Below, piece by piece: positions 1-44,890 of a stretch of DNA of 64,000 nt. The stretch's first letter is position 1; the number at the start of each line of letters is the position of its first letter. This DNA comes from an uncultured bacterium (GTDB lineage: Bacteria > Omnitrophota > Omnitrophia > Omnitrophales > Aquincolibacteriaceae), in NCBI GenBank assembly GCA_964460795.1, contig CAYWRU010000002.1, positions 1,173 through 65,172 of the forward strand, written 5' to 3'. Position numbers and translations under genes: made by a program. Under the pieces are notes generated by a model. It searched no databases. It saw nothing but the letters and a program-made list of their open reading frames with translations, and was not told the origin of the DNA.

Positions 1-3000
1 TAGGATGCGATGAATTCAATATTTCCAAAAGCTGCTGCAGCGTTCGAATATGGACTTGGTTTAACTTGACCCCCGCTTTCCCCAAAAAACGGAAATCTGT
101 TTTGCGATGCATGATTTCATGCCAAGCCTGAAGCGTAAGATCCTGTCTCCAAATACCTAACTTATAAAAACTTTCCAGTTTTAAACGGGCTTGCTGCAGA
201 AAATTATCAATATTCCGCCTGTCCTTTTTTCCTTCCTGCTGAGCTAACGCCGCTGCATTTTTCTTTATTTCTCCCTTCAGGCCGTAAAAACTCTTGGTAA
301 GTTTTGCCTGAAAATCGGTTAAAGGCGTCCAGGTTCGGCCGCGATCCGGGAAAAGGGCGTTCATAAATTCCTGTTTTTTTAGATAAGTCGGCATCGGCTT
401 TGTGCGAACCTCCGAGCGCCCCCGGGGAACAACTTTCTGCTGATCCTGCACTAAACGCACTTCTGAACGTGGGGCAGCGGGTGGTTCCGGAGCATGCATG
501 ACACTGTCAATGTCTGCGGCGCTGGCATTGGGGAAGGTCAACGTAGCCATCCTTGGAAATATTTTTTCTTCAGATAAATGCATCCGGCCCAATCCATTTG
601 CAAATTCAAGCGCGGCCTGATTAGGATCCCCAATTTCCAGCGTTTTGCGAATAAGTTTCGTCAATGGAACAGGATAAGAATGCCCGTTTCTTTGCAAAAT
701 AATGTCCAATCCTGTCACTGGAGGAAATTGAGAATAATGCGGACCAAAGAGAGTCAGAAGCCGCGGTTGATTTGCCTCTTGAAGTTTTTTCAAAAAAAGC
801 CCGAACCCATAGGCGAAATCGTCCGATGAAACCCCTGAAAACATAAACGCCTGGAAAAGCTGTTCAAAACTTCCATTTCCAAATCTAACTTCCACCACAA
901 GACCAATCCCCTCGTTAGGATGACGACTGAGCAAACGAAAAACGTCTTCCTCATCCGGCAGGGCATTAATCATAGGCCCGAACCGCACCTTGATTTGATT
1001 GGCAAAGGCAGAGGCTTGGCGAAAGGTCTCATAAAGTATATCCATAACCAGCGAATAAATTTCTCGCTGATGACCTTCCCCGGACAAACCCGGAATTGAG
1101 CGATGAAGCCTGAAGATTTCGGTGCGAAAATCCTGAATATTCCATTCAGCGGATACAAAGTTTTTCCGGGAAATTTTTCCGTCCAAAACGGTTATTCTCT
1201 GAATCAGATCTCTCAATTTTTCACGCACCTCATCCGCCGGATAGACTGGCAGGGATTGAGCAAGTGATTCATCCAAATAAAAAACAAAATTAGCAGAAGG
1301 CGCTTTCTCCGCCAAAACCTTGACAGCCTCCAGTGCTTGATCCTGAGGAACTCCCTGTAAACGTTTCAAAACAACCTTAACTTCTTCATCAAATATTTTT
1401 TCCGGCCTGTTTACATCTCTCTGCTTCGCTTGCTTCTCCCATTTTTGATAAAAGGGAAAGAGTGCTTCTATAAAGGCTTCCCGGCGCGCCTCCTCCCACG
1501 ATAAAGACAGGAAATGAGTTCTCATCCGTTTAACAAAATCCTCTTTCTGCGCCTTTGCGGCCGCCAGCTCAGGGCCTGCTTTTATAGAAATGTTGTTTCG
1601 GGATGCTGGATGCTGATACGGCGCATCCTGTTCTTCATCACCAAAAGGATAAGTGCCGTCGTCCCGCTCTTCAGATCCAGAAGTAATAAGCAGAGTTTCA
1701 TCCGGCGCGGCTTGCCAATGCCAGTCCGGTTGATCGTCCCTCGGAGTTTCATAACCAGGGGGCGGTGCCACGGAGGGAATTTTAGGAGGTGAAACTATAC
1801 TGGGCGTATCACCCTTTCGATGGATAGCGTTCATTGGATGAGCTACGGCCACCCCGGGTTCAGACGGTAAATCTCGATCAGCCCGTACATCCCAGCTTGC
1901 TTCGCGAATAAAAAGACGGTTGGGACCTTCAAATAAAACCCGGTATAGCTGCGGATTTTGGGGCGTGACGTGTTCGCCCATGGGAAAGGTCTGAAGCCAT
2001 GCCAGAACTTTTCGCTGATTTTCTAATTTTCGATAAAAATCTTCTCCCCAATTGGGCAGCCAATTGCTCACCAAAGTCCCATTTAAGTAAATATTCAACC
2101 GCGCTGGATCGGCCACAGGATCTAAGCCTCTCTTCCGAACTTCATGGATCGGCAGTCCTGTTTCTTCGGCTAATCGTTCCCGGAGTTCTGGCGATAGACT
2201 CTGAATCAAAGAAGGATCCGGTGGAAGCAATGAGGTCGGAATTCTGTACACATGATAATCCGAAGTCGATAAATGATGCGGCAATCCCCTTCGAAGCGGT
2301 GAGCGCACCCAAATTGCCCCTTCATTTCCAGAATCACTGGGTGTCACAGGAGCCGGGAAAATCTGAACGGTATACCAGGCCCCGGAAGCCACAATCCGCT
2401 CAATATCGCGGAGGGTGGCATAGTGAGAAAAATAAAATCCCTGATTTGCCATTTCTGATAATAAAAACGGAAGGCCGTCCCTTCCATCCCGAAGATGGGA
2501 CAAGACTTCGGGATGAACTTCAATCTGAATTTTCGGATTTTTTGAGATATTGACCATCGAGGAAGGCGCTGGAACGGAAATAATCGCCGGCGGCATGGCA
2601 GAAGTCACCGCGTCATTTTCTCTGCTCTTCATCACTTCTACCAGAATGGGGTGACGATGATCCAGAACGAGGTGAACTCCGAACGCATGGTCTTCTTTCA
2701 CAAGTGAAACTGAAAATGGAAGTGACTGCATCTGTTTTGACATAATTTTTTCCGGATCATTCCGATGAGTATTTAAGGCTTTTTGAATTGCTTTGCTATG
2801 AAGATGCGCGCGCTCAGGCAGTTCAAAAGTTATTTGATGATGAACGGAAATAAGGCTCTGAAGCCAGATTCTTGTCCCGAGCTTGGGGTCTAAGGGATCC
2901 AGAGGATATTCCACAAAAACCGCCTCGAGAGGTCCGGCATGCAGAGCCGTTTCCAACCATTGAATGTCTTCTGCCTTCATGGGAAAATCAGCCGCTTGTT

Positions 3001-6000
3001 TTTTAATCTCTTCCCATGCGCTTTCAGCCCAATATCCAGGCTCTAATGTCTTGATCTTGACTGAGATTCCCGGAACAGCAGTCTCCACGCTCAAGGTCGT
3101 AGGCGGAACAGTTGATTTCCATGGGAATATAAATCCCCCTTTCACACCCATAAGTCCCAAAACCGCTTGAAGCACCGCGTGATCAGTGTTCAAGGAGACA
3201 ACCGAACGCTGCGGAGCAAGATCCTGAGTGATGGTTTCAAGCGAATCATGGGCTCCCATCATGACAAGGATTTTTATTTTTATCTCGCTGGATAGATTAT
3301 TAAGATTTTTGACCAGCTGACTCCAATAAATAGGATGCGAGAGCGCATCTGCGATGGCGGTTTGAAAATCAGCGCCGGATCTCAGCCATTTTTCTTTTCG
3401 CGCTGAAGAAGAAAGCACCGGCATCGAAACTCCATGATAAGGAATGCGGGATAATGCGACCAAAATCTCCATCTGGGTTTCAGGGCTCAGAAAAGGATAC
3501 TGAGTTTGTAGATCCCAGACCGGATAATCGATGCGGCCGAAATCACGATAATCTGTTTCTCTTGTAGATTCATTAAATAAAGGCGCTTGGACAGGAAAGT
3601 GCAGCAAGGCGTCCGAAGATTCATGGCTAAATCCAAAATCAGCAGACACCGGCAAGGCGTCGTGCAAAAGAACCAGCCCAGGCTCTCCCGGGTTTTTATG
3701 TAATAAACTCTTCATTTCTATATCCGTTCCCTGAAGAGTCATCACCCCATATGGACGTCTCTGGGTATCCATTTTCTCAAGACATTTTTTTAAGACGGGG
3801 AAAAAATCGTGAACCGTGACAGCTCCCGAGACCAGCATGGCGGGGACAAGCCCCAATCCCCGCCCGGTTAAAAAGGCGGGCTTTAGCTTTCCATGAAGAT
3901 TTTCTTCCCAGGTTTTATACAGCGCAGTCTGATAGAGAAGTGCGGTCAGAAGATGAAAAACAGGCGGAGAAATTCCGTCTGCATTTTGAGTCGTCAGCGA
4001 TTCCATAGACACCTTGAGCGACTGAGCGGCCTCTTCATACAGTTTCCGGACGGATGAAAAATTCCGGACCATTTGCGCTGCCGAATCCCGGGCCTCCTGA
4101 GTCATTTCCGGCATCACTTCCGCAAAGATGATCCCCATTTCCTTGGTTTGAAGTCCTCTGAAAATCTCCTGCGTATTCCGCCTTTCCTTCCTTAGTTCGG
4201 ACCGCTTCGCAGACCCCTCTGGAGTTTTTTCTAAGTGATAAGCCGCCAGAAAATCTTTGATCTGCTGCAGTTTTATTTTTCCTAATGCCGGAATTCCAAG
4301 CAGGTCTTTATCCGAGGCATTTCGCAGTTGTTCGAGTGTTTTAATTCCAAGATTCTCTCTGAGCCCTTTTATCCATCGCGGCAGTCCTATACGATAGCTG
4401 TATCCCAAGAAACCAAAATCCGTTTCTCGGTTCAAAACTTCTGGCGTGGGGCCCTCGTTCCACAATCCTAGCTCATAAAAACTTTCAAGCTTAACTCGAG
4501 CTGATCTCAAAAAATTATTGCTGTCACGACGGTCAGATCGTCCTGATTCCTTGGCTATTTCCAGGTGAGATTTTTTGCTAGCCCCTTTTAGCCCGTAAAA
4601 ATCTCTTACGACGCGCTGTTCAATTTCCGTCAGCGGCGTCCACTCATCGCCATCATCCGGCAATACTTTCGCAACAAAATCAGAGTTTTTTAGATGCTCA
4701 GGAAGTACATGCTCTGCATCTGGTTTATGCCCTAAAACAATCCCCTGTTTAGAAGCCTCGGGATGTTTTTTAAAGTAGGCATGCAAACGACTCACGAGAA
4801 TCCCCATCACGCCGGCAGCCTGATTAAGACTTAATCCCGCCAAGTCTTGGGGGTGCCTTGCCAGAAGCGCTGCGATCTTTTTAGACCGCATTTCGCTGCG
4901 CGATTCAGAAAGAGGCCTTGGCATGAATTCATTTAATCGATATCGAAGCAAGGACTGCAATTCATAATCTTCAGGGCTGGGAAGCGTTACCTCAGTATAG
5001 GCAATAGATCCATGGCGAACGGCAATCGCTGCGGTTCCAATGGGCCGATCTTTTAAGCTCACCTTGTATCTCAAAATATCACCGGATCGATAAAGCTGCA
5101 CCATCCCCGGGGATCCATAGTAACCAAAAGCCATGTCACCATGATAATCAGTGTGATTCCACTGTAGATATTGCAGCGGTTGACTGGACGATTCAGGAAA
5201 ATAGGAATCAAAATTATGTAAGATTTTTTGCAAAGCATAACGGAAGGAATGTAAGGTTGCCGCCATCGTCATTCCGTGGTCTGCCGTAATTTGCTCCAAA
5301 GACTTGTTCGGCTCTCCGGCAGAAACACCAAAATGCTCATTGAGTATCAGCGTTTCAGCATTGGATAAAAGTTTCCATGCTTTGCCACGCTGCTTCTGTG
5401 CCTTTTGGGGGGCCCTGAATTGACGGATAAAATCCCGGCCATAAACTGGATTTTTAAATATTTTTTCCACCACCTCCTCCGCGTTTCGCATTTCAGAACG
5501 AGGAGGTGTCTTAGATACGGTTTGAGCCGATGACCATCGAATGCGTGTCGGCAAAGCAGCCGAGGAATCACGAAGAGGCCTCAAAATTCCGGTTCGAAAG
5601 CGCTGCGTCCGCGCTTTTTGATTTTTCTTTTGAAGTTCAACGATCTTTAAAACACGGACAAATTCATCACGCGTCATGATCTTAGAATCCACAGCCGCTA
5701 AGCGCATTTGATACATCATCCGATCGAAAATCTGCTCGGCTTCCTGAACGGTCATACCCCGCTCTTTCGCCCATAAAGGAATCAAGGCTTCGTTGGGATC
5801 CTCTTTCCATTTTTCAAAAAAGAAAGCCTCCTCCCCGCTGAGAGACCCTTTGAAACGCTGAATGAACCGCGCCATTGCCTGGACATCTAAGGAAGGAAAC
5901 CAATCTAATATAGAATTATCCACAAGCACTTCTAAGCGGTCTTCCTCACCCTCCACAGCAGATGCCAAAATCGGCAAAGCCACTTCGCGCCGAAGATGCC

Positions 6001-21000: not shown

Positions 21001-24000
21001 GCGCAATGGCAGCAAAATCAATATCGCTATATTCAAAAACTGAATGAGAGGCTGTTTCAACGGAAATCTCGACATCGTGAATTTTAAATTTTTGAGGCGC
21101 ATTGAGATGCGGACCGTCCCGAGAGCCATAAAACATGACGGATGCCATAATGCCTGTGAATCGCCCGATCCACATCATCAACTCATCAAAAGTCGCAGCC
21201 CCGTCTTTTTTATCCACGGCTCCGGTACCCCTTCCAAAAGTACGGGGTTCGGTCGTCCGCACCTCGGAGCGAGGAAGTTGAACGGCGCCCGGATGGTTTG
21301 AAGGCAATAAGTGATGGGGAAAATCAGTGACTTCATGGAGGACATAACTCTTACCATCCAAAATCATAGTGTCGAGGAGTTTCAGCGTAAGGCGGTAAGG
21401 GATGGGAACATCCTGGATCGATTCGGCCCGCGATGGATAGACCATCCTGGAGTGCCGATGCTTCGAAAGAAAATAAATTTTCTCAGCGGATGCGAACAAG
21501 ATTTCATTTCCCCTACTGAAACCGTAGTCAACGCCGGTCACTTTTTGAATGCCGGCCTGTTCTTCGAGACGTGAGAGAAGACGTCGAATCTGATAAACTT
21601 TGAGTGCCGTCAAGTAATCCGCTAGGCCCGCAAATATCCCCAAGAAGCTGGTTCCGGCTAACAGCAAACAGGACCCATCCATGACAGTTAAAAAGGGAAA
21701 GCTGGATAAATTCCAGAAAGCAGAAAAAGTAGTGACGAAAATAGACAAGGTAACGAATGGACCGCCCAAGGCAATCAAAACTCTCTGCCTCGCCGTAAGG
21801 CCAAATGGTGTGGTGAAGAATTTAGTGTAACCAGCGGAGACAGAGATGGAAACTCCACGAATGCTGTCCAGGTCTTTCAGCTGGTAATATTTTGCAACCA
21901 TCCAATGCCCCATTTCATGGGACCACACTATGGTGAGATAGCTCAAGGGAAAAAGAAAGAGTGGGATTGCAAACCCACCCAATAGATCACGGATCAATCC
22001 ATTCATGATAAAACCAGCGGTGCTGATAAGAACCAGTATGGCCCAATGTTCGAATCGCCGCCCCAAAAGATGTCTATCCAGAACCTTGTGAAATCGCTTC
22101 ATCCACGAAATTTGTGAACCGCTCAAATGGACGGCGCGAAGTTGTTTTTCAAAAGCGTCTTTAATACTTTCTTTTCCTTCTCGTACTTCAGAGCGCTCAT
22201 GCCTGCTTGTCCGCCGTAGCTTTAGCGAAGGAGGATCCCCCGCGCCGGTGCCTGGCACGTTCTCTCCGAATGTCCCTCTCGCAGTGAAGTTGCCTCTTAC
22301 TGTGGTGATAGTATCCGTTGCGATCTTGAGCGTTGTCATATATCCTGCTTCCATGAAAACCATTGCGGAGGAAACCCATGGTTGAAGCCACCATTGCCAT
22401 CGCTGGAATCGGAATTTTGGTTGCGGTTGTATTTTTTTGGGAACAATACCAGCAAAAACGCCCTCCCCAGAATCCTCGCCGGCCTTCGTAACACCGGAAT
22501 CATCTAACCGAGCCCCACGGGCAGTCATTCCCGGCAAACCGGTGGTGGGTTCGGTTTTTTGGTTTTGAAAGACATAAAAGCCTTCATTGCTGAAGGTTTT
22601 GACAAAACCATGTTTTGCGAGTGTTTTTAAAAGAAGTTGATTGTGCTCATCGGCAGGCTTTCCCTCCCCGTTTCCGTCCGCACCGATAACAAAATGTCCG
22701 CCGTTTTTTAAGACCCTCCGGACTTCTTGGATCGCCTTGTCATAAAATTCCTCGATGCTTTGTCCCGGATCTTTTACGATCAAACCGTGATAATGGGATA
22801 CAAAAAGAAAAATGCTGATCACGGTATCAAAGGAGTTGTCCTGAAAGGGCATGGCTTGGGCTGTGCCGTGAAAATAACCGCGCTTCGGATCATCCGAAAG
22901 ATCTGGAGACAGACCCATCATATTTTTTCCTTGTTTACGAAAATAGGTCACAAGATTCTCATTCAGAACCTCGTCGCTAAAGTCATCATTTTCCACATCA
23001 AGATTTAATAAAGAGCCCTTAAGCAGCGGTTCGACATGGTACCCGTCCGATTCCGCTAGTGCGGCATAAGTCCTCCAATAATTCACATGCCCGGAATAGG
23101 TGGGAGCAAAAATCTCATCACGGCTTCGAACTTCCGCCCGATTCGAGTGAACCCGTGCGCCTGTTTCGATTGAGCCAGTGGATTTTTTTAGGGCATGGGC
23201 GTACTGGCCGACTGGCACACGCGCTGACTGGCTCACTGGCTCACCGGCTAACTGTTTTTCCATTTCACGAATTTGAAGAATGGGGTCCGCGGATTTGACT
23301 TGAAGCGCGGCGGATTCAAGAGCGCGGAGCTCGGCACGTGCTCCGGCAAACGGCATGGACTGCCAGCGCGCGAGACTGCTGAGCGGACGAGCCGTTTGAT
23401 CCGAAAGTTCATAGTCCATAGTCCATGGTCCATAAATTTTTTTTGAGTTTAATTTGGAATTTGGAATTTGAAATTTGAGATTTGTTTCGGATTTCGAGTT
23501 TCGAATTTCAAGTTTTTCAAATGCATACGACCGTCCTATCATCAATTTTTGGTAACGCCGCTGATGCCGTTCGCTGGTGCGCGTAATCATGGGAAGAATA
23601 GATTGGCAGGTAATCCCCTGTTCACGCAGCGCATCCAACACCGCGGGTTTATGAAATCCGCCGAAGACCAGGACGGCTAATTTCTGATCCGGATCGGATT
23701 TAAAATCGCGAATCGCTTTTTCCATGATCCGGTCGCGCGCATGGGCCGTTAAATAAAAACGAATCGCTTTTTTGATTTTGTGCTCCCAGCCTTTTGAAAG
23801 CAGAATGGGCCGGCCGGTTTCATGCGCCAGAAAATCCGCAAGACCATCGGTTTTAAATTCATTTAGAGTTTTCATGGCACGCTTGAACTCTTCGGGGCTG
23901 GCTGTAATTTTTTCGACTTTGCTGAGAAGCGAAAGGGCTTCCAAGGTTTGGAATATTTTCTGCTCGCGGACTCCGGCCAAACACTTCTTCACCCCCTCTT

Positions 24001-24961
24001 TCTCTAAATCGGCTATTTCTTGCTTCAATTCGGTGAGATTGAGGGCCTTTAAAGCCTCGACTTGCTTTTGATCGCTCGACTTTTCTGAGAAAAGAAGCAG
24101 CTTGATTTTGGGAAAAGATCCCGGCGGAAGCGCTCCAAGCTCCAGGGTCGAAAGCGTTTGTTTCAGATAGTCTAAAAGGCCGAGTTTTTCAGATTCATAA
24201 CGCTCCCGCAGTTTCATCCAGGATTTGAAAGCCGGGGGAAAATGCTGCATCCCTAAATTTTGAAATTCCCGGGTGAGCTCGGAAAGATCCTCTTCAATCG
24301 ACTCACGGACTCGAGCAGCTTGGCCATACCAAGCGATGTTATCGCGGTAATATTTCAGACTGTCCGCGCCAATCAATCGAAAATCGAGTCCATGGTCCCC
24401 GCCTGCCGCTTCGCTCCGGCGGGCAGGCATGGTCGATGGTCCATAGTTGGATTTTTCACTTTGGTTTTTTGGACTAAGGTCTGTGGACTGTGGTCTATGG
24501 ACTTGCGGCGTCCGCCGCAGGATATGCGCATACTCAGCTCCCCCGATCCGGAGATGATCCATCAGGAAATAGGCAATGCGCTGACGGATTTCGGGACTTT
24601 GGATGTCCTGAAAATATTTGTCCGTGGGAACTTCGCCTTCGTAGCCTTCTTCGAAAACGGTCTTAACTCCCCGGTGCTCCACAAGGTATTGGACAAGTTT
24701 GGCGATGTTTTCCTGCGCCTCTAGGGAGTCGTGAGCATCCTGGATGTAGAGGATGGTCTTGGCAGCGGGTGCAGGGAAAAATCCATCCACACGGCCGATG
24801 GATTCAGGAATAGAAATGACGGACGAAGCCGATCCAGTCAATGCGCTTTGGAGTCCGAGAGAGCTGGCGTAACCTCCGGTGTCACTCCAAAGAAATGAAG
24901 CAATGACGATCAGCGCGCATAGACGTCGCTTCCATAGATAGATGGAAAAAAAAGAGTTCAC
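1..24961 (-). CDS. Giant multidomain membrane-anchored protein. This is the 5' 24.96 kb (8,320 complete codons) of an ORF whose stop lies beyond the left window edge.
   Basis: The minus-strand frame with codons starting at + coordinates = 2 mod 3 has an in-frame TAG at 24968-24970. No frame-2 ORF is reported anywhere below it. All 16 short minus-strand ORFs listed for 1-25000 are in the other two frames, so any frame-2 stop would have produced a long listed ORF. The track evidently drops ORFs that lack a stop in the window. The start is GTG at 24959-24961 with AGGA at 24966-24969. The N-terminus VNSFFSIYLWKRRLCALIVIASFLW looks like a signal anchor. I checked the frame by hand at more than 25 positions spread from 404 to 24722. 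Confidence 0.85.
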   Translation of the reverse strand, partial: MNSFFSIYLWKRRLCALIVIASFLWSDTGGYASSLGLQSALTGSASSVISIPESIGRVDGFFPAPAAKTILYIQDAHDSLEAQENIAKLVQYLVEHRGVKTVFEEGYEGEVPTDKYFQDIQSPEIRQRIAYFLMDHLRIGGAEYAHILRRTPQVHRPQSTDLSPKNQSEKSNYGPSTMPARRSEAAGGDHGLDFRLIGADSLKYYRDNIAWYGQAARVRESIEEDLSELTREFQNLGMQHFPPAFKSWMKLRERYESEKLGLLDYLKQTLSTLELGALPPGSFPKIKLLLFSEKSSDQKQVEALKALNLTELKQEIADLEKEGVKKCLAGVREQKIFQTLEALSLLSKVEKITASPEEFKRAMKTLNEFKTDGLADFLAHETGRPILLSKGWEHKIKKAIRFYLTAHARDRIMEKAIRDFKSDPDQKLAVLVFGGFHKPAVLDALREQGITCQSILPMITRTSERHQRRYQKLMIGRSYAFEKLEIRNSKSETNLKFQIPNSKLNSKKIYGPWTMDYELSDQTARPLSSLARWQSMPFAGARAELRALESAALQVKSADPILQIREMEKQLAGEPVSQSARVPVGQYAHALKKSTGSIETGARVHSNRAEVRSRDEIFAPTYSGHVNYWRTYAALAESDGYHVEPLLKGSLLNLDVENDDFSDEVLNENLVTYFRKQGKNMMGLSPDLSDDPKRGYFHGTAQAMPFQDNSFDTVISIFLFVSHYHGLIVKDPGQSIEEFYDKAIQEVRRVLKNGGHFVIGADGNGEGKPADEHNQLLLKTLAKHGFVKTFSNEGFYVFQNQKTEPTTGLPGMTARGARLDDSGVTKAGEDSGEGVFAGIVPKKIQPQPKFRFQRWQWWLQPWVSSAMVFMEAGYMTTLKIATDTITTVRGNFTARGTFGENVPGTGAGDPPSLKLRRTSRHERSEVREGKESIKDAFEKQLRAVHLSGSQISWMKRFHKVLDRHLLGRRFEHWAILVLISTAGFIMNGLIRDLLGGFAIPLFLFPLSYLTIVWSHEMGHWMVAKYYQLKDLDSIRGVSISVSAGYTKFFTTPFGLTARQRVLIALGGPFVTLSIFVTTFSAFWNLSSFPFLTVMDGSCLLLAGTSFLGIFAGLADYLTALKVYQIRRLLSRLEEQAGIQKVTGVDYGFSRGNEILFASAEKIYFLSKHRHSRMVYPSRAESIQDVPIPYRLTLKLLDTMILDGKSYVLHEVTDFPHHLLPSNHPGAVQLPRSEVRTTEPRTFGRGTGAVDKKDGAATFDELMMWIGRFTGIMASVMFYGSRDGPHLNAPQKFKIHDVEISVETASHSVFEYSDIDFAAIARSAVEKYFAASPDERSEAELKKRGIHFQIHEFTMKSVKRGFGPAQWRLLLRVNDYRGETFFLKRDHKTRQEFETALEQHFIRYISVWLAHREHLKSKQLSENRVYASIRRTEFLKKFIPSAAGVSLGVWAIVLAFREFQVNERPAPSAPKKQSRAISRGIERLRDSKVFAYASLSFFLMLGIFAYYRESVSYLGGASSIDWKPLRTFASHYLNDALYVPGVTGITYLWTYAFLIILSLFRLSANTLKTWATTLRIMIVLRVIYFMIDGMGQEQGQFYKTEAGTWDPWDVVTYAVTGIFSLLFVYAASFAPFTRGRVRSPSSTQSAKSVPGTGAGGKAGRSEMRGNLLPIFLALVTPGIVGGLLYLVPRLWHLIKFFRIKSYWNWREQENERREESLRSISQNDRVLKIMEAIHKAWKTHGALGDYEALMNKILYIDMVISHHLAPDFSWDASGVTQFYQEDHDKALQYLEKMEIWLREMHKKNLTVESKADRGTLNHKLITLDQERASVQRLQDPYYVAHHVLDFMIDHPSLFPGIHKTVDAQNPKDWQKWQYTYQPSTTDRRSEIRGITREEAIRRLEAALKKTYFSGLADFDGNLTPDGSKEADESALLKIQNLLGEGIPYGLVSGRAEHVTDTDARARGVHDVAEVAHRIREGLSGAELSNFILFPENGSYAAWDELEDGRLVRKEVDLVKKYGVVAKDFIFTPEEREAILQDILKHLESRGFKHPFVFKEDKRYGFAAWVDIKPEWTTQNEVNRQINQMTAEVREFLQSHAHQKFHLFEPLATSVSIDIMVKGVDKALALRFMAERFGISQDEVVGTDDKASREGNGWSLTKHAAGFSTNEFEPDSEYQIPLALAWNATGLQAWLKLHEKLRFESSLDPLRIGVFADTPSLLQAMKAQLEKEFHGKILIESFCKIQPHYGALNWIVKRKRSLEDRWQIYEEGRLIAEGGLESMAHLLHLDFSRPVKRAEMRTSPSITENTENVPGADLDRGDRPMPFVPNPGESGKNALPSSGVNISKISNRSELRDMIFEMDAEAIRRRIHEIQKTYPHQAAFQFSIKAHSSALEIHVRSKGQIYSLDHVSGFFIHSDGKVYVAQTDSELSEKRTYKSLDADGVWSTLNAEALAPELFDQFQLIDKGLYYRAMLRKIIAFDPAAHPEPRMHEHSREFWTQLHRNFFQQALDYLNDEKAKKYPETNELRACRLHFKVFGGMDKINALLRAVLGSAAHYDRLLSDRNNPLWNLLREGHKINRLLVGLDTDLDPEVPKVMADASLMDERLDLDAFRKNTVTSLRVLNTQAESVQASEAPHQWRPGVEADNFLSVWANLSLGLRPYLRSEYELAALLKKVLDVRFLPAEPAGSSKGGLNLPPRLELTLKEPWIDPAAEFHGNASKPKSMKKVEVVILKSPLDPVPQSEDIPALEYDEAVVQAYAFHAGMSPEEKVSILRKLLVELALSRRLLPKTRQHARSFEARKLYSRLITRTDAEFQATQAQLKLEQDHELRTYGIQAPSAIPVGADKTLLSNFDQSAREIRRQLSPWTSAEFLKTKAGLNAAQNYPGFDNRAEFFVRFDTLSDFFFPVLALFLVPRKETAKGGSAWELHKNNIFPWETKFKMIQPLIDHAGPLLSRYLKISPEGSHDPAARDFYIALNLAFIVWMGLDSHDMLKEANAFYLRDRLNFFMQQTAPGQGGLPDFYHQWDAAVRESESLKLQSVGLETQMKQLAVADYSKKVSTELEQVFESYRTSVRRIQELSIVQKENTPPSFDLSSPEAFLASVEKIHNWALTPSLRSELRSNGEPWETRMAHFQKLIDFRKMLETGSVAEVETVIKTMPPEFREIGHIFTRLLDARRRDTSVRQAALPPAKPAPEPQTLSLEDWLVQDWPGGKNKIPAERQKLIDRASPILDLFAPVLRLFLTKKEGTSQALVSAADMGRFSSGISQVEPFIKILETLLPASEPIRKNLRDISDEKNKLGYLSVLNAAFFKQAGFDNPNMIKEPGALAAVRQTFIKLIQERFDPSGEWANLLDRVEVTDQRPEVAAEPGHDGALASLWEIVLQNPTDLLMALETQAEAVKEQLTQEKFQSTDFKVFVRPWKTASQFEEVAAQIAQEFVPQSDQANEKLRVLQLDKVEKFKNFILLLRTWRDMPEAESKKKKLFAAGIAYREIFLALSPEEQGRLSGCIKGVITFQADLEHRTQIWKGLLGGVERFLDPAKGDLSRAKEKLKALELQPLLPGMDETILHLARLKKTIQDREAAILAEKADRNARSGKIKTQTLLLDHADTLMRQLEKALEKNLVPESETLSSNKEEIEKNWAAASEPDLMDRVSKQRTRLEGILKNAADLKEVQEKAAAAEKLRLEQAAQRQKVQTLFDQALKSLQAGDVETAEAQYLAAKEALPPEMKPEFHETIKEVGHQVYQAKTRQVSSLSIPPRDLAPPSEPAKKVETALQTEARRIYELARQKGEWGGLNGFVQGVIQQLMSGKTLSSGDARRFRKYDPGQFKNEVHEAISVLAQSNLRSEIRAHTRPLSKAQKKWLKKRAGLYGEKLHELLQETSKAIRENDKAAFAQSMDSIKRLSDLLLRYGLMSSMSIYDINNPLAALETMGEIGDDLRKGKTRKEQMLQRLRMHARFLIRYSRSSKPTKFYTIKIYPKNFTEIHEVEPVRYDGSKPLELIFSPILTSGKPYQKRFVALPFTLRELEQVIEYKTRKKDPAEVKKYLEAYAQDGFGPVDFSRAQHRTRSSQRSEVRMGEETEMGLSDPLALTTTRLAGLVKGNSELVESFERRHLLTVPDDDRPYVLLDIENTELAIQEAEENIAELRERLPHLPEHVQSTIRNLLYRYEQKRSRLLGFKEVITGFIKNPQHASLKPWVGKNAYLIDELQKAQKRSEIRKINPNFAFDHAQRKASTAGNRSEVRGASSPNELEVSTPTKGNLDAASATQWNESAVFFPPSGFHLPGREARELYEFSEKVQAMYARMNQRMQRLLNDPQFDITPQFTPSNDSLFVMPDNPGLNPGAIRHPDFGPRLGGRGDNLNLNPLAEEPVLKRHLAITAHQMALWEALKELMKGSHPAAVLGASRGVAAAYYASGALSPEDAAELVYRGTQFLEAVARLSGERQMAVVSNISFGEAEKFLEEHHAALSVQYSDKRFAVSFPKGKGESLQQVVESRGGKFLLVLHDITSHDPSLVNEKTQDLFKGYREFLTSLKSRMKRPEIPLYSVLRPGELLDSPEKIIEEEIGSITHSLHLEKALPALIQKTDAKNVIGLGYGKNYFLQRLVKEGAIAPSVTASQALDSAGLQAIQESLNRSEIRSQPLEVQSTATLKFHMHERASTQIYGKYLANLSDPDEFEWRYRLIKKGRMGEEEFIVSPLGLLMNATELQPGAQIRIYVRSSQYSKEILDRLVTYAAFVFSHHEEVGTESVIDRIPTSASEKLILEERNRLVEDLFKLGLDLRPRPLDEMLEQLLKAQPKNDAADTSRSESGLKSVPPQTASRWRISPEQAEEVYGKIYTEMAQVPGWNGAVFRKSRTEFGYYASSDPKDLPGLVKELNLASHEPITFLDLGSGQGDLLFALALLNPNLHLIGIEGMQGFVRDGFEILDALVFQTPRIRNQIQMHAVDFYGTAASRLISKADVLYYYGFGTWDEQQLADTLAKSMKPGARFIVYKNFENIHPLLLATERFECLQGPNLQDSDSPFRTYQLRARSELRKSRAALRAFDTIISYFSTADFTLYELMSKISDVGRGGLHKALQQLLQCRLIRELEGLRNHAKIYRLNLQDLKRINEVEFLLGEFTERDNVAILAEQFQRIHDAQPLFSIPKEPVHFSQKLSEFGVSNVSTVHLNTYLIFEFMQNHFTDYPVRASSMFSLTEGMTQTTFNKQLGFLKELGLIYQSDKGGTINPADKKADLWFLAPKFADLQRTALGNALKNYAYHHNLEALKLQIQQALAGHAVEFKIPQPSTDADAADAELQKLFPEATGASSETPMSLGRFLSALEEVQKETQHPRENQIAKKMGITSFRLRRWARAYKINLRELGVWGLQFPKSKERFEVLIDQALQRLRQGNPVYQIMPIPLNDFAKELHVAGTDSIQNTALQYGIPLAQKGIVVPEVFMKLDSNASRILEAKARDHLAALGIKTPSLAAISYVLGAGNVRTTYASWLSAHGATQADAPLTETERTLLIPYYQHWRESLPVQRRNAKTQYIQKLIQTAEKRWQAAVHYRDATMGVRAKEALSAMGQETPAVSLRKKQHEKPEPPKPPALHMQTGMTGLKHLGMVRLARDKIERDKKRSEVRAEFNLEPINLAFGNPKAGIVFAEKLARYFPKGFPDDLDIEAIRKHWERKYRIRLTGVDLEPLFLAALEMKGQVPPLSSYNILRPAEPIDTASLFESDEADIILDRIRLVKQIYGRLSFESRKILMTPAVLAVFLGLRPAYVQGSVFDASDPSISPLYEELSRWHRVEDLGIGLVFTNTCIFSPYLLGAEVLGKKDLLLLTGSVDPEAKSHLDWLGEAYENNDLERFSEYSIALFSSLFDWMVRNPVSEPVIMGTFLGYPDSVIEDYHHAASEGELSRLKQQYLDFLGISISVKGESGYLQEEAERYLQKIEEALYEAYAYLKQEPDFKKIAEELSLPYQVFERQPMSFDYRNPESNGDSFLPSEKAGSESGVKVRRAPLLLNPPSEKPAELQGIQVASRSEATRVNLLALGESILRMEEQRWNRLLNGKKRYEQLLDYFRGRLHDSVASAAELQKEIEQYVEVPGLLDEEAVVSAALRLATQDPDQIEGRILEMASTVQQENDTAIQNASGRFKDVLAKHEPLWKNIAYAKNTASKLAARLHWENPIVETPYVTLAIHQMLYVVVLSVIQILNEPDFASRPETENVIAFLKWLEKQPKLMEEKVAEGEKPRLQPLGDLVLGALYLLSNTQDETAGAHLVASNLWALDVVIDRYNIRDDDKAELASEGKLAYQEFLPQFKPQNGIRFFEQAKPAAQAKIKKHLGKTTRHLRREVALPILASAVEGEEDRLEVLVDNSILDWFPSLDVQAMARFIQRFKGSLSGEEAFFFEKWKEDPNEALIPLWAKERGMTVQEAEQIFDRMMYQMRLAAVDSKIMTRDEFVRVLKIVELQKKNQKARTQRFRTGILRPLRDSSAALPTRIRWSSAQTVSKTPPRSEMRNAEEVVEKIFKNPVYGRDFIRQFRAPQKAQKQRGKAWKLLSNAETLILNEHFGVSAGEPNKSLEQITADHGMTMAATLHSFRYALQKILHNFDSYFPESSSQPLQYLQWNHTDYHGDMAFGYYGSPGMVQLYRSGDILRYKVSLKDRPIGTAAIAVRHGSIAYTEVTLPSPEDYELQSLLRYRLNEFMPRPLSESRSEMRSKKIAALLARHPQDLAGLSLNQAAGVMGILVSRLHAYFKKHPEASKQGIVLGHKPDAEHVLPEHLKNSDFVAKVLPDDGDEWTPLTEIEQRVVRDFYGLKGASKKSHLEIAKESGRSDRRDSNNFLRSARVKLESFYELGLWNEGPTPEVLNRETDFGFLGYSYRIGLPRWIKGLRENLGIKTLEQLRNASDKDLLGIPALGKIKLQQIKDFLAAYHLEKTPEGSAKRSELRKERRNTQEIFRGLQTKEMGIIFAEVMPEMTQEARDSAAQMVRNFSSVRKLYEEAAQSLKVSMESLTTQNADGISPPVFHLLTALLYQTALYKTWEENLHGKLKPAFLTGRGLGLVPAMLVSGAVTVHDFFPVLKKCLEKMDTQRRPYGVMTLQGTDIEMKSLLHKNPGEPGLVLLHDALPVSADFGFSHESSDALLHFPVQAPLFNESTRETDYRDFGRIDYPVWDLQTQYPFLSPETQMEILVALSRIPYHGVSMPVLSSSARKEKWLRSGADFQTAIADALSHPIYWSQLVKNLNNLSSEIKIKILVMMGAHDSLETITQDLAPQRSVVSLNTDHAVLQAVLGLMGVKGGFIFPWKSTVPPTTLSVETAVPGISVKIKTLEPGYWAESAWEEIKKQAADFPMKAEDIQWLETALHAGPLEAVFVEYPLDPLDPKLGTRIWLQSLISVHHQITFELPERAHLHSKAIQKALNTHRNDPEKIMSKQMQSLPFSVSLVKEDHAFGVHLVLDHRHPILVEVMKSRENDAVTSAMPPAIISVPAPSSMVNISKNPKIQIEVHPEVLSHLRDGRDGLPFLLSEMANQGFYFSHYATLRDIERIVASGAWYTVQIFPAPVTPSDSGNEGAIWVRSPLRRGLPHHLSTSDYHVYRIPTSLLPPDPSLIQSLSPELRERLAEETGLPIHEVRKRGLDPVADPARLNIYLNGTLVSNWLPNWGEDFYRKLENQRKVLAWLQTFPMGEHVTPQNPQLYRVLFEGPNRLFIREASWDVRADRDLPSEPGVAVAHPMNAIHRKGDTPSIVSPPKIPSVAPPPGYETPRDDQPDWHWQAAPDETLLITSGSEERDDGTYPFGDEEQDAPYQHPASRNNISIKAGPELAAAKAQKEDFVKRMRTHFLSLSWEEARREAFIEALFPFYQKWEKQAKQRDVNRPEKIFDEEVKVVLKRLQGVPQDQALEAVKVLAEKAPSANFVFYLDESLAQSLPVYPADEVREKLRDLIQRITVLDGKISRKNFVSAEWNIQDFRTEIFRLHRSIPGLSGEGHQREIYSLVMDILYETFRQASAFANQIKVRFGPMINALPDEEDVFRLLSRHPNEGIGLVVEVRFGNGSFEQLFQAFMFSGVSSDDFAYGFGLFLKKLQEANQPRLLTLFGPHYSQFPPVTGLDIILQRNGHSYPVPLTKLIRKTLEIGDPNQAALEFANGLGRMHLSEEKIFPRMATLTFPNASAADIDSVMHAPEPPAAPRSEVRLVQDQQKVVPRGRSEVRTKPMPTYLKKQEFMNALFPDRGRTWTPLTDFQAKLTKSFYGLKGEIKKNAAALAQQEGKKDRRNIDNFLQQARLKLESFYKLGIWRQDLTLQAWHEIMHRKTDFRFLGKAGVKLNQVHIRTLQQLLEILNSSHP
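149..331 (-). other. Sigma-70 region-4-like HTH module (copy 3, paralogue of 4460-4642)
   Basis: WTPLTDFQAKLTKSFYGLKGEIKKNAAALAQQEGKKDRRNIDNFLQQARLKLESFYKLGIW. It is followed at 1-110 by ...GVKLNQVHIRTLQQLLEIL, which resembles the start of another alpha-CTD-like HhH. Confidence 0.45.
3560..4140 (-). other. Second FabD/acyltransferase-like module with the nucleophile elbow degenerated (GRGLG instead of GxSxG)
   Basis: PAFLTGRGLGLVPAMLVSGAVTVHDFFPVLKKCLEKM, with GRGLG at 3851-3865 (frame verified). The layout is similar to 11150-11990 but lacks the serine. Confidence 0.35.
4240..4385 (-). other. RNA polymerase alpha-subunit C-terminal-domain-like helix-hairpin-helix module
   Basis: LPRWIKGLRENLGIKTLEQLRNASDKDLLGIPALGKIKLQQIKDFLAAYHL, compared with the alpha-CTD pattern L-x-LS-x-R-x2-N-x-L-x3-I-x-T-x2-DL-...-LL-x3-N-x-G-x-KS-x2-EI-x3-L. 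Confidence 0.4.
4460..4642 (-). other. Sigma-70 region-4-like HTH module (copy 2)
   Basis: WTPLTEIEQRVVRDFYGLKGASKKSHLEIAKESGRSDRRDSNNFLRSARVKLESFYELGLW. This is a paralogue of 149-331. Confidence 0.45.
5215..5380 (-). other. Sigma-70 region-4-like HTH module (copy 1)
   Basis: KLLSNAETLILNEHFGVSAGEPNKSLEQITADHGMTMAATLHSFRYALQKILHNF (frame verified 5282-5374). It follows the region 4.2 pattern L-x2-E-x2-hL-x2-hFG-...-(S/T)LEEhG-...-AL-x-KL. Confidence 0.45.
9650..9840 (-). other. Winged-helix (MarR/ArsR-like) HTH-like module
   Basis: YELMSKISDVGRGGLHKALQQLLQCRLIRELEGLRNHAKIYRLN (frame verified at 9722-9780). Pattern resemblance only. Confidence 0.3.
9990..10400 (-). other. Class-I SAM-dependent methyltransferase-like module with an intact glycine loop (DOT1-like spacing)
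   Basis: FLDLGSGQGDLLFALALLNPNLHLIGIEG (10256-10321, frame verified) is followed by VDFYG...ADVLYYYGFG...MKPGARFIVYKNFE. Confidence 0.55.
11150..11990 (-). other. FabD / acyltransferase (malonyl-CoA:ACP transacylase fold)-like module with an intact GxSxG
   Basis: AAVLGASRGVAAAYYASGALSPEDAAELVYRGTQF...RQMAVVSNISFGEAEKFLEE...KFLLVLHDITSHDPSLV. GASRG is at 11756-11770 (frame verified). The order of motifs parallels GHSLGE...MAAV...HS of FabD/AT domains. Confidence 0.5.
18470..19240 (-). other. HAD-superfamily (subfamily IIB-like) phosphatase module
   Basis: The DxD nucleophile motif is SGLADFDGNLTPD (19202-19240, frame verified). A C-terminal VKGVDKALALRFMAERFGISQDEVVGTDDKASREGNG (about 18510-18640) resembles HAD motifs III/IV. 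Confidence 0.6.
19890..20660 (-). other. Polytopic membrane block (about 6 predicted TM helices)
   Basis: Hydrophobic stretches: FIPSAAGVSLGVWAIVLAF, VFAYASLSFFLMLGIFAYY, GITYLWTYAFLIILSLF, TLRIMIVLRVIYFMIDG, VVTYAVTGIFSLLFVYAASFAPF, LLPIFLALVTPGIVGGLLYLVP. Confidence 0.6.
21560..22080 (-). other. Membrane-embedded HExxH zinc-metalloprotease-like module (peptidase M50 / site-2-protease-like)
   Basis: IVWSHEMGHWMVAKYY (HEMGH = 21905-21919, frame verified) lies within hydrophobic helices (WAILVLISTAGFIMNGL, FAIPLFLFPLSYL). A downstream ALGGPFVTLSIFV resembles the M50 GP motif. Confidence 0.55.
22670..23060 (-). other. Class-I methyltransferase-like module with a degenerate SAM-binding motif I
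   Basis: The post-I/II/III region is typical of the Methyltransf_11 type: GYFHGTAQAMPFQDNSFDTVISIF...EVRRVLKNGGHFVIG (22681-22885). The position expected for VLDxGxGxG reads SLLNLDVENDDF (22979-23014), with no glycine loop. Confidence 0.45.
23407..23434. repeat. Family-A half element (left-arm type), in frame inside the giant ORF
   Basis: The sequence gttcatagtccatagtccatggtccata encodes IYGPWTMDYEL and directly abuts the family-B element. Confidence 0.55.
23435..23524. repeat. Family-B low-complexity element (AAATTCGAA / TTTCGGATTTCG stutter), in frame inside the giant ORF
   Basis: The sequence is aatttggaatttggaatttgaaatttgagatttgtttcggatttcgagtttcgaatttcaag. Its reverse complement aligns with 44761-44800 (gaaattcgaaactcgaaatccgaaacaaatctcaaa versus aaattcgaatctcgaagcacgaaatccgaaacaaactcaaaaa). 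It encodes FEKLEIRNSKSETNLKFQIPNSKLNSKK. Confidence 0.65.
23560..24790 (-). other. ChaN / TraB / Tiki (EreA-like) superfamily-like module, interrupted by an in-frame repeat insertion
   Basis: The N-terminal motif KTILYIQDAHDSLEAQ (24731-24760) resembles a GE-H-x-x-H/E motif. The C-terminal motif LAVLVFGGFHKPAVLDALREQG (GGFH at 23651-23662) resembles GxxH. Motif-level resemblance only. Confidence 0.35.
24428..24506. repeat. Family-A palindromic element (GTCCATAG-type stutter arms), full copy, in frame inside the giant ORF
   Basis: The sequence is catggtcgatggtccatagttgg / T-rich loop / actaaggtctgtggactgtggtctatggacttgc. It aligns arm-for-arm with 32102-32181 and translates as VHRPQSTDLSPKNQSEKSNYGPSTM. 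Confidence 0.7.
24860..24961 (-). other. N-terminal signal peptide / signal-anchor segment of the giant protein
   Basis: Hand translation gives V(M)NSFFSIYLWKRRLCALIVIASFLWSDTGGYASSLG: a basic KRR followed by a ~14-residue hydrophobic stretch. Confidence 0.5.
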
Positions 24962-24983
24962 GGAGTCCTAATTGAAATGGATT

Positions 24984-41161: not shown

Positions 41162-41229
41162 AATTTAAATGGCTTATACTAGCGCGCATACGATCTTATC
41201 ATTTGGATTCGAATTACCAACGAAAGGTC

Positions 41230-44885: not shown

Positions 44886-44890
44886 AGCGA

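Follow-up and report, generated by a model that had tools for sequence, protein, structure and literature searches.

The minus strand of positions 2-24961 in the window (the whole 64,000-nucleotide stretch of DNA that was analysed) is the 5' portion of one genuine Omnitrophota gene, whose non-repetitive product exceeds 8,320 aa. The product belongs to a large, multi-copy, Omnitrophota-restricted family in which a Sec-type signal peptide and an N-terminal module of ~440 aa (N-module) precede a variable train of cassettes, with a C-terminal domain (CTD) in complete members. A strict pentapeptide, R-[SA]-E-[LVMAIT]-R, sits in polar linkers between the cassettes, directly ahead of cassette starts, and marks points of cassette exchange between paralogs. 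It is probable, with ample room for doubt, that this real giant gene encodes an exported cassette train in which the pentapeptide is a recognition site for predicted processing, making the protein a polyprotein-like precursor. Giant multi-enzyme genes are already documented in Omnitrophota and the present gene adds one more; what is new here is the family architecture, including its fixed ends and the pentapeptide at cassette boundaries. The gene and its start region comprise the following features.

2..24961, minus strand: giant ORF, 8,320 codons visible, 3' end outside the window; one N-module, no CTD
24959..24961, minus strand: GTG start codon, the same start being called on the independent contig L001
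24966-24969, minus strand: AGGA, a Shine-Dalgarno-like element by sequence, with the in-frame TAG at 24968-24970

An earlier note on this DNA had claimed a single uninterrupted gene spanning 8,320 codons or more and had set a search for in-frame stops as a check. The claim is borne out when the reverse complement of 2-24961 is translated by machine: this frame has 8,320 codons with 0 stops, while the remaining two minus-strand frames contain 388 and 481 stops. The stop-free run amounts to 8,322 codons, is bounded on its upstream side by the TAG at 24968-24970 and overruns the left end of the window. The ORF track looks empty over this region because the listing omits ORFs that run off the end of the source. 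A codon model trained on the housekeeping genes of the window prefers frame 0 over both others in 17 of 17 consecutive 500-codon windows, and GC and coding statistics are even along the ORF. Logan contig L001 (run SRR11567520, 3,459 bp) corresponds to positions 27949-24491 at 100% identity without gaps, and a gene call on this contig also puts the ORF start at GTG 24961. Self-BLASTP of the protein returns the identity match alone, with no internal repeats. Exactly one N-module is present, internal N-modules and CTDs number 0, and no internal signal peptides were seen within the ORF. The combination of one N-module and no CTD indicates that the ORF is incomplete rather than chimeric, and the truncation at the window edge proposed in the note is supported by the absence from the visible 8,320 aa of the CTD that ends complete relatives. 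No relative of the left-most 600 aa was found in genome and metagenome scans, and Rfam and tRNA scans of the window for RNA genes were empty.

The Omnitrophota origin that had been proposed is confirmed by the DnaB encoded in the window, which is 72-84% identical to named Omnitrophota proteins, and by the Omnitrophota labels on nearly all named N-module matches. Among the 80 best N-module loci, the taxon-labelled ones are all Omnitrophota bar one, which carries a Planctomycetales label, and each MAG holds at least 5-6 N-module paralogs. The surprise expressed at the size of the gene is only partly justified, as the protein is large for its own family (complete members span 805-7,652 aa) but ordinary for its phylum, in which ~94% of complete genomes encode proteins of at least 10,000 aa (Nielsen & Lui 2026, 10.64898/2026.06.07.730766). 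A full length above 30,000 aa is unlikely, the largest complete member of the sub-family having 7,652 aa.

The N-terminal part of the protein defines the family and contains two features.

24866..24961, minus strand: signal peptide or signal anchor, aa 1-32; KRR, hydrophobic core LCALIVIASFLW, then G-Y-A
23510..24841, minus strand: conserved N-terminal module, aa 41-484 (hmmsearch E=6e-159)

A similar basic-plus-hydrophobic N-terminus is present in 84% of 95 relatives, and the AF2 model places a helix at aa 6-25 in the signal-peptide region. A lipoprotein signal was rejected, as the N-terminus contains no lipobox. The region common to 82 homologs is confined to aa 10-482, is always N-terminal and is followed by differing Pfam domains; the N-module is 35-42% identical to its counterparts in 82 Omnitrophota proteins, and its representative clusters number 286, 1,249 and 4,703 at E<=1e-30, 1e-10 and 1e-3, respectively. 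At the other end, complete members carry a Rossmann-like CTD of ~200 aa with the terminus -[AS]-A-COOH. Among 100 further members the CTD lies at the very end in 71, all 71 of which end in AA or SA, and is internal in 0. A fold search with the CTD yielded generic Rossmann-like matches only. No description of the N-module or the pentapeptide was found in the literature, and none of the CTD or its -[AS]A terminus was met in the literature consulted.

Alignment of the N-module reveals the invariant residues D75, H77, E105, E143, R149 and GGFH437, and its AF2 model has a pLDDT of 81.5. The top four Foldseek matches in the PDB all belong to the erythromycin esterase family (6xcq EreC, 3b55 and 2rad among them), and these matches are weak (probability 0.66-0.97, TM 0.16-0.26, E 6e-3 or weaker). 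The erythromycin esterase family is part of the Tiki/TraB/ChaN superfamily, and the N-module appears, from its sequence, to share a His/Glu/His/Arg set of like kind (DAH77, EEG105, GGFH437, R149); it differs from erythromycin esterase in a long helical insertion over aa 200-420. Pfam matches were absent for 32 members and for the consensus sequence, and a PDB profile search gave no match. Assignment to the Ere/Tiki/ChaN group was rejected at the sequence level, where profiles, consensus scan and PDB profile were all negative, and the weak fold matches remain.

We infer that the giant protein would be exported or membrane-threaded because it has a signal peptide, ~9 predicted transmembrane helices and a 6-fold depletion of cysteine. 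The helices come from a hydropathy scan, a crude method, and fall into two clusters in addition to the signal anchor. Cysteine makes up 0.13% of the giant (11 in 8,320 aa) and 0.14% of the family, compared with 0.82% in the housekeeping genes of the window. Cassettes that depend on SAM, CoA or phosphate esters are, on the other hand, hard to reconcile with extracytoplasmic action. The recognisable cassettes and membrane segments are as follows.

22550..22876, minus strand: methyltransferase-like cassette, aa 696-804 (Methyltransf_11 E=1.6e-7, NCBIfam; only the C-terminal half of the fold)
21587..22084, minus strand: site-2-protease (M50)-like membrane cassette, aa 960-1125 (Peptidase_M50 E=3.7e-4)
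19895..20653, minus strand: second transmembrane cluster, aa 1437-1689 (~five helices; RSEMR inside)
18542..19228, minus strand: HAD-IIB (Cof-type) phosphatase-like cassette, aa 1912-2140 (DFDGN motif I present)
11225..11854, minus strand: malonyl-CoA:ACP-transacylase-like acyltransferase cassette, aa 4370-4579 (Acyl_transf_1 E=3.7e-11)
9986..10372, minus strand: Class I SAM-methyltransferase-like cassette, aa 4864-4992 (LDLGSGQG motif I)
4244..4369, minus strand: helix-hairpin-helix/RNA-polymerase-alpha-CTD-like element, aa 6865-6906 (weak)
3728..4126, minus strand: second acyltransferase-like cassette, aa 6946-7078 (FabD E=1e-6; PDB 3h0p/2h1y)

The M50-like cassette comprises four hydrophobic helices, with HEMGH at aa 1015 inside a hydrophobic segment and N..P.....DG downstream of it, around aa 1083-1095; its match to Peptidase M50 (PF02163) is weak (score 20.3, under the gathering cut-off of 27.2). 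The acyltransferase cassette at aa 4370-4579 has a GASRG nucleophile elbow and matches MdcH/FabD and PKS AT domains in the PDB. The second acyltransferase-like cassette has GRGLG in place of GxSxG and is therefore probably inactive. Both matches of the element at aa 6865-6906 (HHH_5 E=3e-4, RNA_pol_A_CTD E=1e-3) are under cut-off. The description of the protein as an enzyme/HTH mosaic thus stands for its enzyme part, while its HTH part is weak, with HTH_28 at E=0.13, RpoH-like at E=0.036 and the HhH/RNA-polymerase-alpha-CTD-like matches at E ~3e-4 to 1e-3 all under curated cut-offs, and most of the sequence matches no known family, a recognisable domain being missing over ~85% of it. The two exclusions made in the note hold: the protein is not a repeat adhesin, as it has no internal repeats and no repeat-domain Pfam matches, and it is not an NRPS/PKS, as two weak acyltransferase-like cassettes are accompanied by no other domain match of that type. 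Pfam and NCBIfam scans of all ten segments gave no match to SecA in the visible ORF. Glycosyltransferase (GT), glycoside hydrolase (GH), NUDIX and HEAT domains were likewise absent from the visible ORF by Pfam scan and were found in paralogs, and the visible part showed no C39/S8 domain.

The pentapeptide R-[SA]-E-[LVMAIT]-R occurs in 21 copies along the giant ORF (2.5 per 1,000 aa).

23324..23338, minus strand: RAELR, aa 542; first copy, beyond the N-module
23126..23140, minus strand: RAEVR, aa 608; motif match
22181..22195, minus strand: RSEVR, aa 923; motif match
21257..21271, minus strand: RSEVR, aa 1231; motif match
19973-19987, minus strand: RSEMR, aa 1659; just ahead of a helix, second transmembrane cluster
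19301..19315, minus strand: RSEIR, aa 1883; exact start of the homology block common to L032
18077..18091, minus strand: RAEMR, aa 2291; motif match
17912..17926, minus strand: RSELR, aa 2346; left boundary of a 1,500-aa block common to L042
15614..15628, minus strand: RSELR, aa 3112; motif match
13430..13444, minus strand: RSEIR, aa 3840; right boundary of the L042 block
12752..12766, minus strand: RSEVR, aa 4066; motif match
12323..12337, minus strand: RSEIR, aa 4209; motif match
12248..12262, minus strand: RSEVR, aa 4234; left boundary of the block common to L059
11063..11077, minus strand: RSEIR, aa 4629; right boundary of the L059 block
9872..9886, minus strand: RSELR, aa 5026; L003 and L030 blocks start at the motif
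8120..8134, minus strand: RSEVR, aa 5610; motif match
5486..5500, minus strand: RSEMR, aa 6488; motif match
4886..4900, minus strand: RSEMR, aa 6688; motif match
4190..4204, minus strand: RSELR, aa 6920; motif match
455..469, minus strand: RSEVR, aa 8165; motif match
404..418, minus strand: RSEVR, aa 8182; motif match

The strict form is the most frequent 5-mer of the ORF, with 15 copies compared to a mean of 0.04 and a maximum of 1 in shuffles. Across 80 family ORFs the motif density is 1.24 per 1,000 aa, ~15-fold higher than in the other ORFs of the same loci (0.085), and it ranges over 1.24-1.93 per 1,000 aa between family sets; among ordinary complete ORFs, the 29 that reach 600 aa or more contain 0 motifs. 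A replication set of 100 further members holds 688 copies compared to ~9 in shuffles, the count correlates with length (r=0.67), and in 91% of these members the motif first appears within aa 430-700. The positions are strict, requiring R rather than K, E rather than D, and S or A at position 2.

The placement of the motif follows the cassettes. Its flanks are poor in hydrophobic residues (0.20-0.29 versus 0.33), and in two AF2 models it falls in, or in the case of the N-module just beyond, low-confidence segments beside folded domains. Homology blocks start within 30 aa of a motif in 43% of cases, versus 10.6% (maximum 21%) for randomised positions, and individual blocks have motifs at their boundaries in both partners. 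In the giant, a region around aa 4060-5035 contains a cassette 39% identical to one in L059 by local BLAST, although a homologue search with this region yielded none that passed the word filter, and blocks common to L072 and L012 begin 3-4 aa past the RSELR at aa 5026. The motif is also found 7-17 aa from some C-termini and directly ahead of transmembrane helices.

At the DNA level the motif pattern is locked to the reading frame, with 276 in-frame occurrences compared to counts of 1, 0 and 6 for the remaining frames and antisense; a frame-independent DNA element was rejected on this ground (276 versus 7 at other places in family ORFs). The codons that make up the motif show a bias across 275 instances, with CGY at Arg1 in 82% versus 40% (p~1e-39) and TCN at Ser2 in 94% versus 69% (p~1e-25), while Arg5 is shifted to CGG/AGR and Val is GTG in 52% versus 29%. 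An RNA hairpin (CGY...G-CG) behind this bias was rejected, since pairing frequencies equal the expectation from the marginals. Internal translation starts at the hydrophobic codon were not supported either, only about half of these codons being ATG, GTG or TTG and no Shine-Dalgarno sequence lying at a workable spacing. Modification of the Ser is disfavoured, as Ala replaces it in ~17% of copies; the Ser/Ala swap points to a small-residue pocket instead.

The pentapeptide is probably a site-specific recognition site, the likeliest role of which is predicted endoproteolytic processing. The giant ORF would then be a polyprotein-like precursor, with candidate cleavage at the pentapeptides yielding separate enzymes that would act on the cell surface or within a host cell, and such action would fit the episymbiotic or predatory lifestyle reported for Omnitrophota. 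The hydrolase-like N-module is the sole candidate processing enzyme found in every member. A protease of matching specificity was not identified, and no soluble (e.g. chymotrypsin-like) protease domain was recognised in the ORF. The M50-like cassette is absent from part of the family and would cut within membranes rather than in soluble linkers. The codon bias inside the motif counts against processing, as a constraint at the peptide level alone does not predict it.

A wider proposal is put forward tentatively, namely that R-[SA]-E-hydrophobic-R is a predicted processing code of Omnitrophota giant proteins, by which polyproteins are cut once per cassette into dozens of enzymes. Individual ORFs with lengths from 1,000 to >8,000 residues, and possibly motif-bearing ORFs of >10,000 aa as well, would be bacterial polyproteins, cut by a dedicated and possibly self-encoded hydrolase so that the enzymes would be freed at the surface of the cell or into a host. 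Cassette swaps at motif sites would generate diversity among paralogs, and the codon bias within the motif could hint at a translation-coupled component.

The alternative that survives best, although we consider it unlikely, is that the protein stays whole as a membrane-anchored multi-enzyme scaffold, with the motif serving as a docking site or cassette N-cap and no processing taking place. All of the motif statistics are equally compatible with recognition without cleavage, and a cognate protease was not found in this analysis. In the two preprints on Omnitrophota giants, multi-enzyme giants are read as membrane-anchored architectures (Nielsen & Lui, 10.64898/2026.06.07.730766), the giant protein of V. 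archaeovorus is cited as expressed (10.1101/2023.11.21.568195), and processing is reported in neither. However, a site of five near-invariant residues (R not K, E not D) that recurs once in each cassette amid variable flanks is characteristic of recognition by an enzyme, a docking partner would be bound weakly by 5 residues, and a domain cap is hard to reconcile with motifs 7-17 aa from some C-termini and directly ahead of transmembrane helices. A docking partner could be a chaperone, a secretion component or a partner protein.

Predicted processing at the peptide level must also be weighed against the proposal that the motif is mainly a nucleic-acid or translation signal (a recombination joint, mRNA processing or decoding speed), with the peptide as a by-product. 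The strong codon bias over 275 instances and the match of motifs to cassette-exchange points between paralogs favour this proposal, which is nevertheless improbable given that the DNA pattern is confined to the reading frame (276 versus 1, 0 and 6). Furthermore, wobble positions vary, Ser uses both codon families and Arg5 all six codons, the DNA around the motif is not conserved, and the only plausible hairpin lacks base-pair covariation (observed equals expected). The TCN bias can stem from strict purifying selection, as TCN and AGY codons cannot interconvert synonymously.

An artefact, whether a chimera assembled from several genes of the family or a pseudogene that is decayed or not expressed, is very improbable even though paralogs can collapse in metagenome assemblies and this family is multi-copy: stops would build up in a pseudogene (ln P of a stop-free ORF by chance is ~ -446 from the off-frame stop density), a chimera would be expected to contain internal signal peptides, N-modules or CTDs, of which 0 are present, GC and coding statistics are uniform, an independent assembly matches the 5' end, ORFs of >3,760 aa are the rule in the family (at least 34 of 80 loci overrun the fetched DNA), and much longer ORFs are documented in long-read complete genomes (10.64898/2026.06.07.730766).

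Whether the giants of this phylum act whole or cleaved is regarded as unsettled in the field, and missing information on cleavage points is said to block their domain-wise analysis (10.1101/2023.11.21.568195). The rules that matter here are a sub-family with fixed ends and a strict pentapeptide at cassette boundaries. The motif offers a principled basis for choosing the units in which giants are submitted to structure prediction and can serve as a marker by which giant-gene fragments are spotted in fragmented metagenomes, and it makes the whole-versus-cleaved question concretely and cheaply testable.

Literature searches on the motif, on Omnitrophota polyproteins or erythromycin esterases and on giant-protein cleavage turned up nothing beyond two preprints, which describe 'Archaeovorin' type giants of >30,000 aa (West-Roberts et al. 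2023, 10.1101/2023.11.21.568195) and 'class 1 multi-enzyme metabolic clusters' starting at 10,000 aa (Nielsen & Lui 2026, 10.64898/2026.06.07.730766). Term searches of both found no mention of a recurring linker motif. The present giant resembles both types in its phylum, its non-repetitive enzyme-like mosaic (methyltransferase, HAD, peptidase), its signal peptide and transmembrane helices, and its largely unannotatable sequence; truncation by assembly or window is also common to it and the published giants. Its visible, incomplete length of 8,320 aa is under both thresholds. Archaeovorins have numerous transmembrane regions, and their domains include GT, methyltransferase, glycoside hydrolase, peptidase, NUDIX and HEAT (10.1101/2023.11.21.568195). 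The giant shares numerous transmembrane regions with them (~9 helices by the crude hydropathy method), whereas the divergent SecA DEAD-like domain of most Archaeovorins is not in its visible part. Of the Archaeovorin domains, its visible part carries methyltransferase-like and peptidase-like cassettes and gave no GT, glycoside hydrolase, NUDIX or HEAT match. Similar to the class 1 clusters, it has distinct methyltransferase, M50, HAD, acyltransferase and HhH matches, none of which dominates.

The cassette at aa 960-1125 resembles a site-2 protease (PF02163) in its HExxH within a hydrophobic helix, its N..P.....DG and its four transmembrane helices, and it differs from the free-standing enzymes in being embedded in a giant protein. 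Potyvirus NIa and picornavirus 3C are virus-encoded proteases that cut polyproteins at strict short sites. The giant is similar to viral polyproteins in having one long ORF and strict short linker sites, with approximately one per functional unit, and by analogy its protease may belong to the same polypeptide; in contrast, it is a cellular, chromosomal member of a multi-copy gene family and its processing is hypothetical.

MARTX toxins of Vibrio and relatives are very large, secreted proteins with conserved termini and strain-shuffled effector cassettes, which are released via site-specific cleavage of linkers at sites after Leu. The giant comes from a different phylum, has no sequence similarity to these toxins and carries R-S-E-x-R instead of Leu sites; it also has no RTX/glycine-rich repeats and no cysteine protease domain match, and is almost devoid of Cys. 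As a functional analogy, with cleavage putative on the side of the giant, the MARTX toxins are the best counterpart among known systems.

Machine translation of window 2-24961 on the minus strand reads through 8,320 codons without a single stop; over the same interval, 388 and 481 stops interrupt the remaining minus-strand frames. This confirms the claim, made in the earlier note from the sequence alone, that one minus-strand frame is stop-free over the first 25 kb. The open stretch starts two codons past the TAG at 24968-24970 and exits the window at its left end; the giant ORF is absent from the ORF listing because the listing omits ORFs running off the source end. Based on the off-frame stop density, ln P for a stop-free stretch of this size arising by chance is approximately -446. 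The GC content is flat across the ORF (~0.47), and a codon model trained on the housekeeping genes of the window favors frame 0 in 17 of 17 consecutive 500-codon windows. An independent contig of 3,459 bp (Logan assembly, run SRR11567520) is 100% identical to window 27949-24491, and gene calling on this contig places the start at the same GTG (24961), which has an AGGA 4 nt upstream.

The other 39 kb of the window is ordinary diderm housekeeping DNA (Maf, GT2, ValRS, citramalate synthase, aspartate/threonine pathway, MsbA, LpxB/I/A, LpxC-FabZ, Skp, BamA, DnaB, L9, SSB, Pth, PRPP synthetase, and GlmU). The DnaB shares 72-84% identity with proteins named Candidatus Omnitrophica/Omnitrophota, indicating that the source organism is an Omnitrophota bacterium and bearing out an origin that had been considered compatible with the gene context. 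A scan of the window found no tRNA or Rfam elements, and the putative ORFs at 28509-29144(-), 29999-30544(-), and 41089-41667(+) (181-211 aa) have no NCBIfam match. A UDP-GlcNAc 3-dehydrogenase-like gene, 43844-44809(+), lies directly upstream of lpxB, 44816-46033(+), both on the strand opposite to the remaining lipid A genes; its position beside lpxB hints that the lipid A of this organism may contain GlcN3N. A single ORF, 51248-52540(-), is an LpxC-FabZ fusion, scoring 450.7 bits against the bifunctional NCBIfam model NF009667, slightly under the 465-bit cut-off. At 46487-49627(-), the gene for a NifA-like sigma-54 activator, whose N-terminal region is of the GAF type, directly precedes the glutamine synthetase gene glnA in the same orientation.

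The giant protein is non-repetitive, as self-BLASTP returned the identity hit alone, and most of it is unannotatable, with sparse and divergent matches in Pfam, NCBIfam, and PDB sequence searches. The recognizable features are as follows.

Domain-like features of the giant protein
aa 696-804: methyltransferase fold, C-terminal half only
aa 960-1125: site-2-protease-like membrane cassette (HEMGH within a hydrophobic helix)
aa 1912-2140: HAD-like cassette of the Cof type, carrying the DFDGN motif
aa 4370-4579: cassette resembling malonyl transferases, with GASRG
aa 4864-4992: cassette resembling class I methyltransferases, with LDLGSGQG
aa 6865-6906: helix-hairpin-helix, a weak match scoring under the cut-off
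aa 6946-7078, window 3728-4126(-): second acyltransferase-like cassette (GRGLG in place of the nucleophile elbow GxSxG)

The substitution of GRGLG for GxSxG suggests that the second acyltransferase-like cassette is probably an inactive pseudo-enzyme. By hydropathy, TM segments cluster in two places, at aa 972-1117 and at aa 1437-1689. These features support the earlier interpretation of the ORF as an enzyme mosaic.

A query with aa 1-1200 of the giant protein retrieved 82 proteins; those named to phylum are all Omnitrophota, and one is labelled Verrucomicrobiae. All 82 align to the giant protein at aa 10-482 only, always by their own N-terminus, and differ in the domains that follow (methyltransferase, sigma-70, GT4, NUDIX, WD40, radical SAM, amylase, PEP-utilising, HAD, GNAT, and others). 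This conserved N-module has no matching Pfam family. Its invariant residues are D75, H77, E105, E143, R149, and GGFH437, and the sole non-trivial PDB matches of its AF2 model (pLDDT 81.5) are erythromycin-esterase-family structures with low TM-scores, so that an erythromycin-esterase-like fold is no more than a lead. An exhaustive search yielded 286 N-module representative clusters at E<=1e-30, rising to 1,249 at E<=1e-10, and scanning a single genome for each species identified 170 loci; among the best 80 of these, the taxon-labelled loci are all Omnitrophota except one labelled Planctomycetales. Single MAGs carry at least 5-6 N-module paralogs.

Complete members of this family finish with a conserved C-terminal domain (CTD) of ~200 aa, modelled by AF2 as a generic Rossmann-like fold (pLDDT 88.4). 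The final two CTD residues are AA or SA in every complete member among the related proteins P0001-P0182 and the 80 N-module loci L002-L081, and this -[AS]-A-COOH terminus is reminiscent of an ssrA tag or of an end recognised by a tail-specific protease/PDZ. Among 100 further members (the replication set), 86 terminate in AA or SA, and the CTD is located at the very end in 71 and internally in none. The visible giant ORF contains exactly one N-module and no CTD, which indicates that it is truncated at the window edge, as had been proposed, rather than a concatenation of family genes; its 8,320 aa already exceed every complete family member seen (805-7,652 aa, the range in the replication set). 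Family N-termini resemble Sec signal peptides. Furthermore, Cys makes up 0.13% of the giant ORF and 0.14% of the family compared to 0.82% of neighbouring housekeeping proteins, a six-fold depletion that would fit export. At odds with the export reading, some cassettes depend on SAM, CoA, or phosphate esters and would not be expected to work beyond the cytoplasm.

The most frequent 5-mer in the giant ORF is RSE[VILM]R. RSE[VIL]R occurs in 15 copies (shuffle mean 0.04, maximum 1), and allowing Ala at position 2 gives 21 copies between window 404 and 23338 (minus strand). The residues tolerated in the full motif, R-[SA]-E-[LVMAIT]-R, are tightly restricted, while its flanks are polar and not conserved.

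Residue counts by motif position
Position 1: R 294, K 3
Position 2: S 294, A 62
Position 3: E 294, D 0
Position 4: L, V, M, A, I, T
Position 5: R 294, K 2

Across the 80 related loci, motif density is 1.24 per 1,000 aa in family ORFs compared to 0.085 in other ORFs; the few copies outside the family are in neighbouring very long, Cys-poor ORFs, and the motif is absent from all 29 ordinary complete ORFs with 600 aa or more. The replication set contains 688 copies (~9 in shuffles); for 91% of its members the first copy falls at aa 430-700, and the number rises with protein length (r=0.67, mean spacing 533 aa). Paralog homology blocks begin and finish at motifs: one such block pairs giant aa 2347-3848, delimited by motifs at 2346 and 3840, with aa 2142-3598 of the relative at L042, delimited by motifs at 2128 and 3590. 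Of all block starts, 43% are within 30 aa of a motif compared to 10.6% (maximum 21%) for randomised positions. In the two AF2 models, of the N-module and the CTD, the motif is within low-confidence segments flanking folded domains or, for the N-module, just beyond them.

Very long Cys-poor ORFs immediately upstream of family genes, running off the locus ends, carry the same motif.

Upstream motif-bearing ORFs
L006, 2-7808(+)
L021, 1-9688(+)
L044, 1-9664(+)
L040, 2-2789(+)
L032, 1-1879(+)

These ORFs end without the family CTD, suggesting that giant proteins of other types may share the motif.

The family is modular, signal-peptide-bearing, and Cys-poor; its ends are fixed, and cassettes are exchanged at a strict pentapeptide in the linkers. 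This pentapeptide is putatively recognised in a site-specific manner, with proteolytic processing as the most plausible role; the family ORFs would then be polyprotein-like. MARTX toxins and viral polyproteins are functional analogies for such processing. No protease acting at the motif was identified in this analysis, and a non-cleaved scaffold in which the motif is a docking site is a serious rival to processing. A nucleic-acid signal was considered from codon usage over 275 R-S-E-x-R sites in L002-L081, which is biased relative to background at Arg1 (CGY 82% vs 40%), Ser2 (TCN 94% vs 69%; TCC 45% vs 22%), and Val (GTG 52% vs 29%), with Arg5 shifted towards CGG/AGR. The equivalent DNA pattern occurs 276 times in frame vs 1, 0, and 6 times in other frames and antisense, and the sole plausible hairpin at the motif has no base-pair covariation, indicating that the selected entity is read in frame, although a constraint on the peptide alone would not predict the codon bias. 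Modification of Ser at position 2 is disfavoured by the Ser/Ala interchange.

Multi-enzyme proteins of giant or very great length have been amply described in Omnitrophota (10.1101/2023.11.21.568195; 10.64898/2026.06.07.730766). The giant gene matches the 'multi-enzyme' class of these proteins (10.64898/2026.06.07.730766) and, as such genes are already common in the phylum, belongs to a known kind. Its size had been presented as exceptional, which is overstated given that proteins of 10,000 aa or more are encoded in ~94% of complete Omnitrophota genomes (10.64898/2026.06.07.730766). Term searches of both reports found no mention of a motif repeated in linkers or of sites where a polyprotein is processed, and searches of the accessible literature for this motif and for related terms were empty; missing cleavage-point information is named as a limitation in one report (10.1101/2023.11.21.568195). 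Beyond the gene itself, the analysis contributes the architecture of the family and the R-[SA]-E-x-R code, and these render the processing question directly testable.
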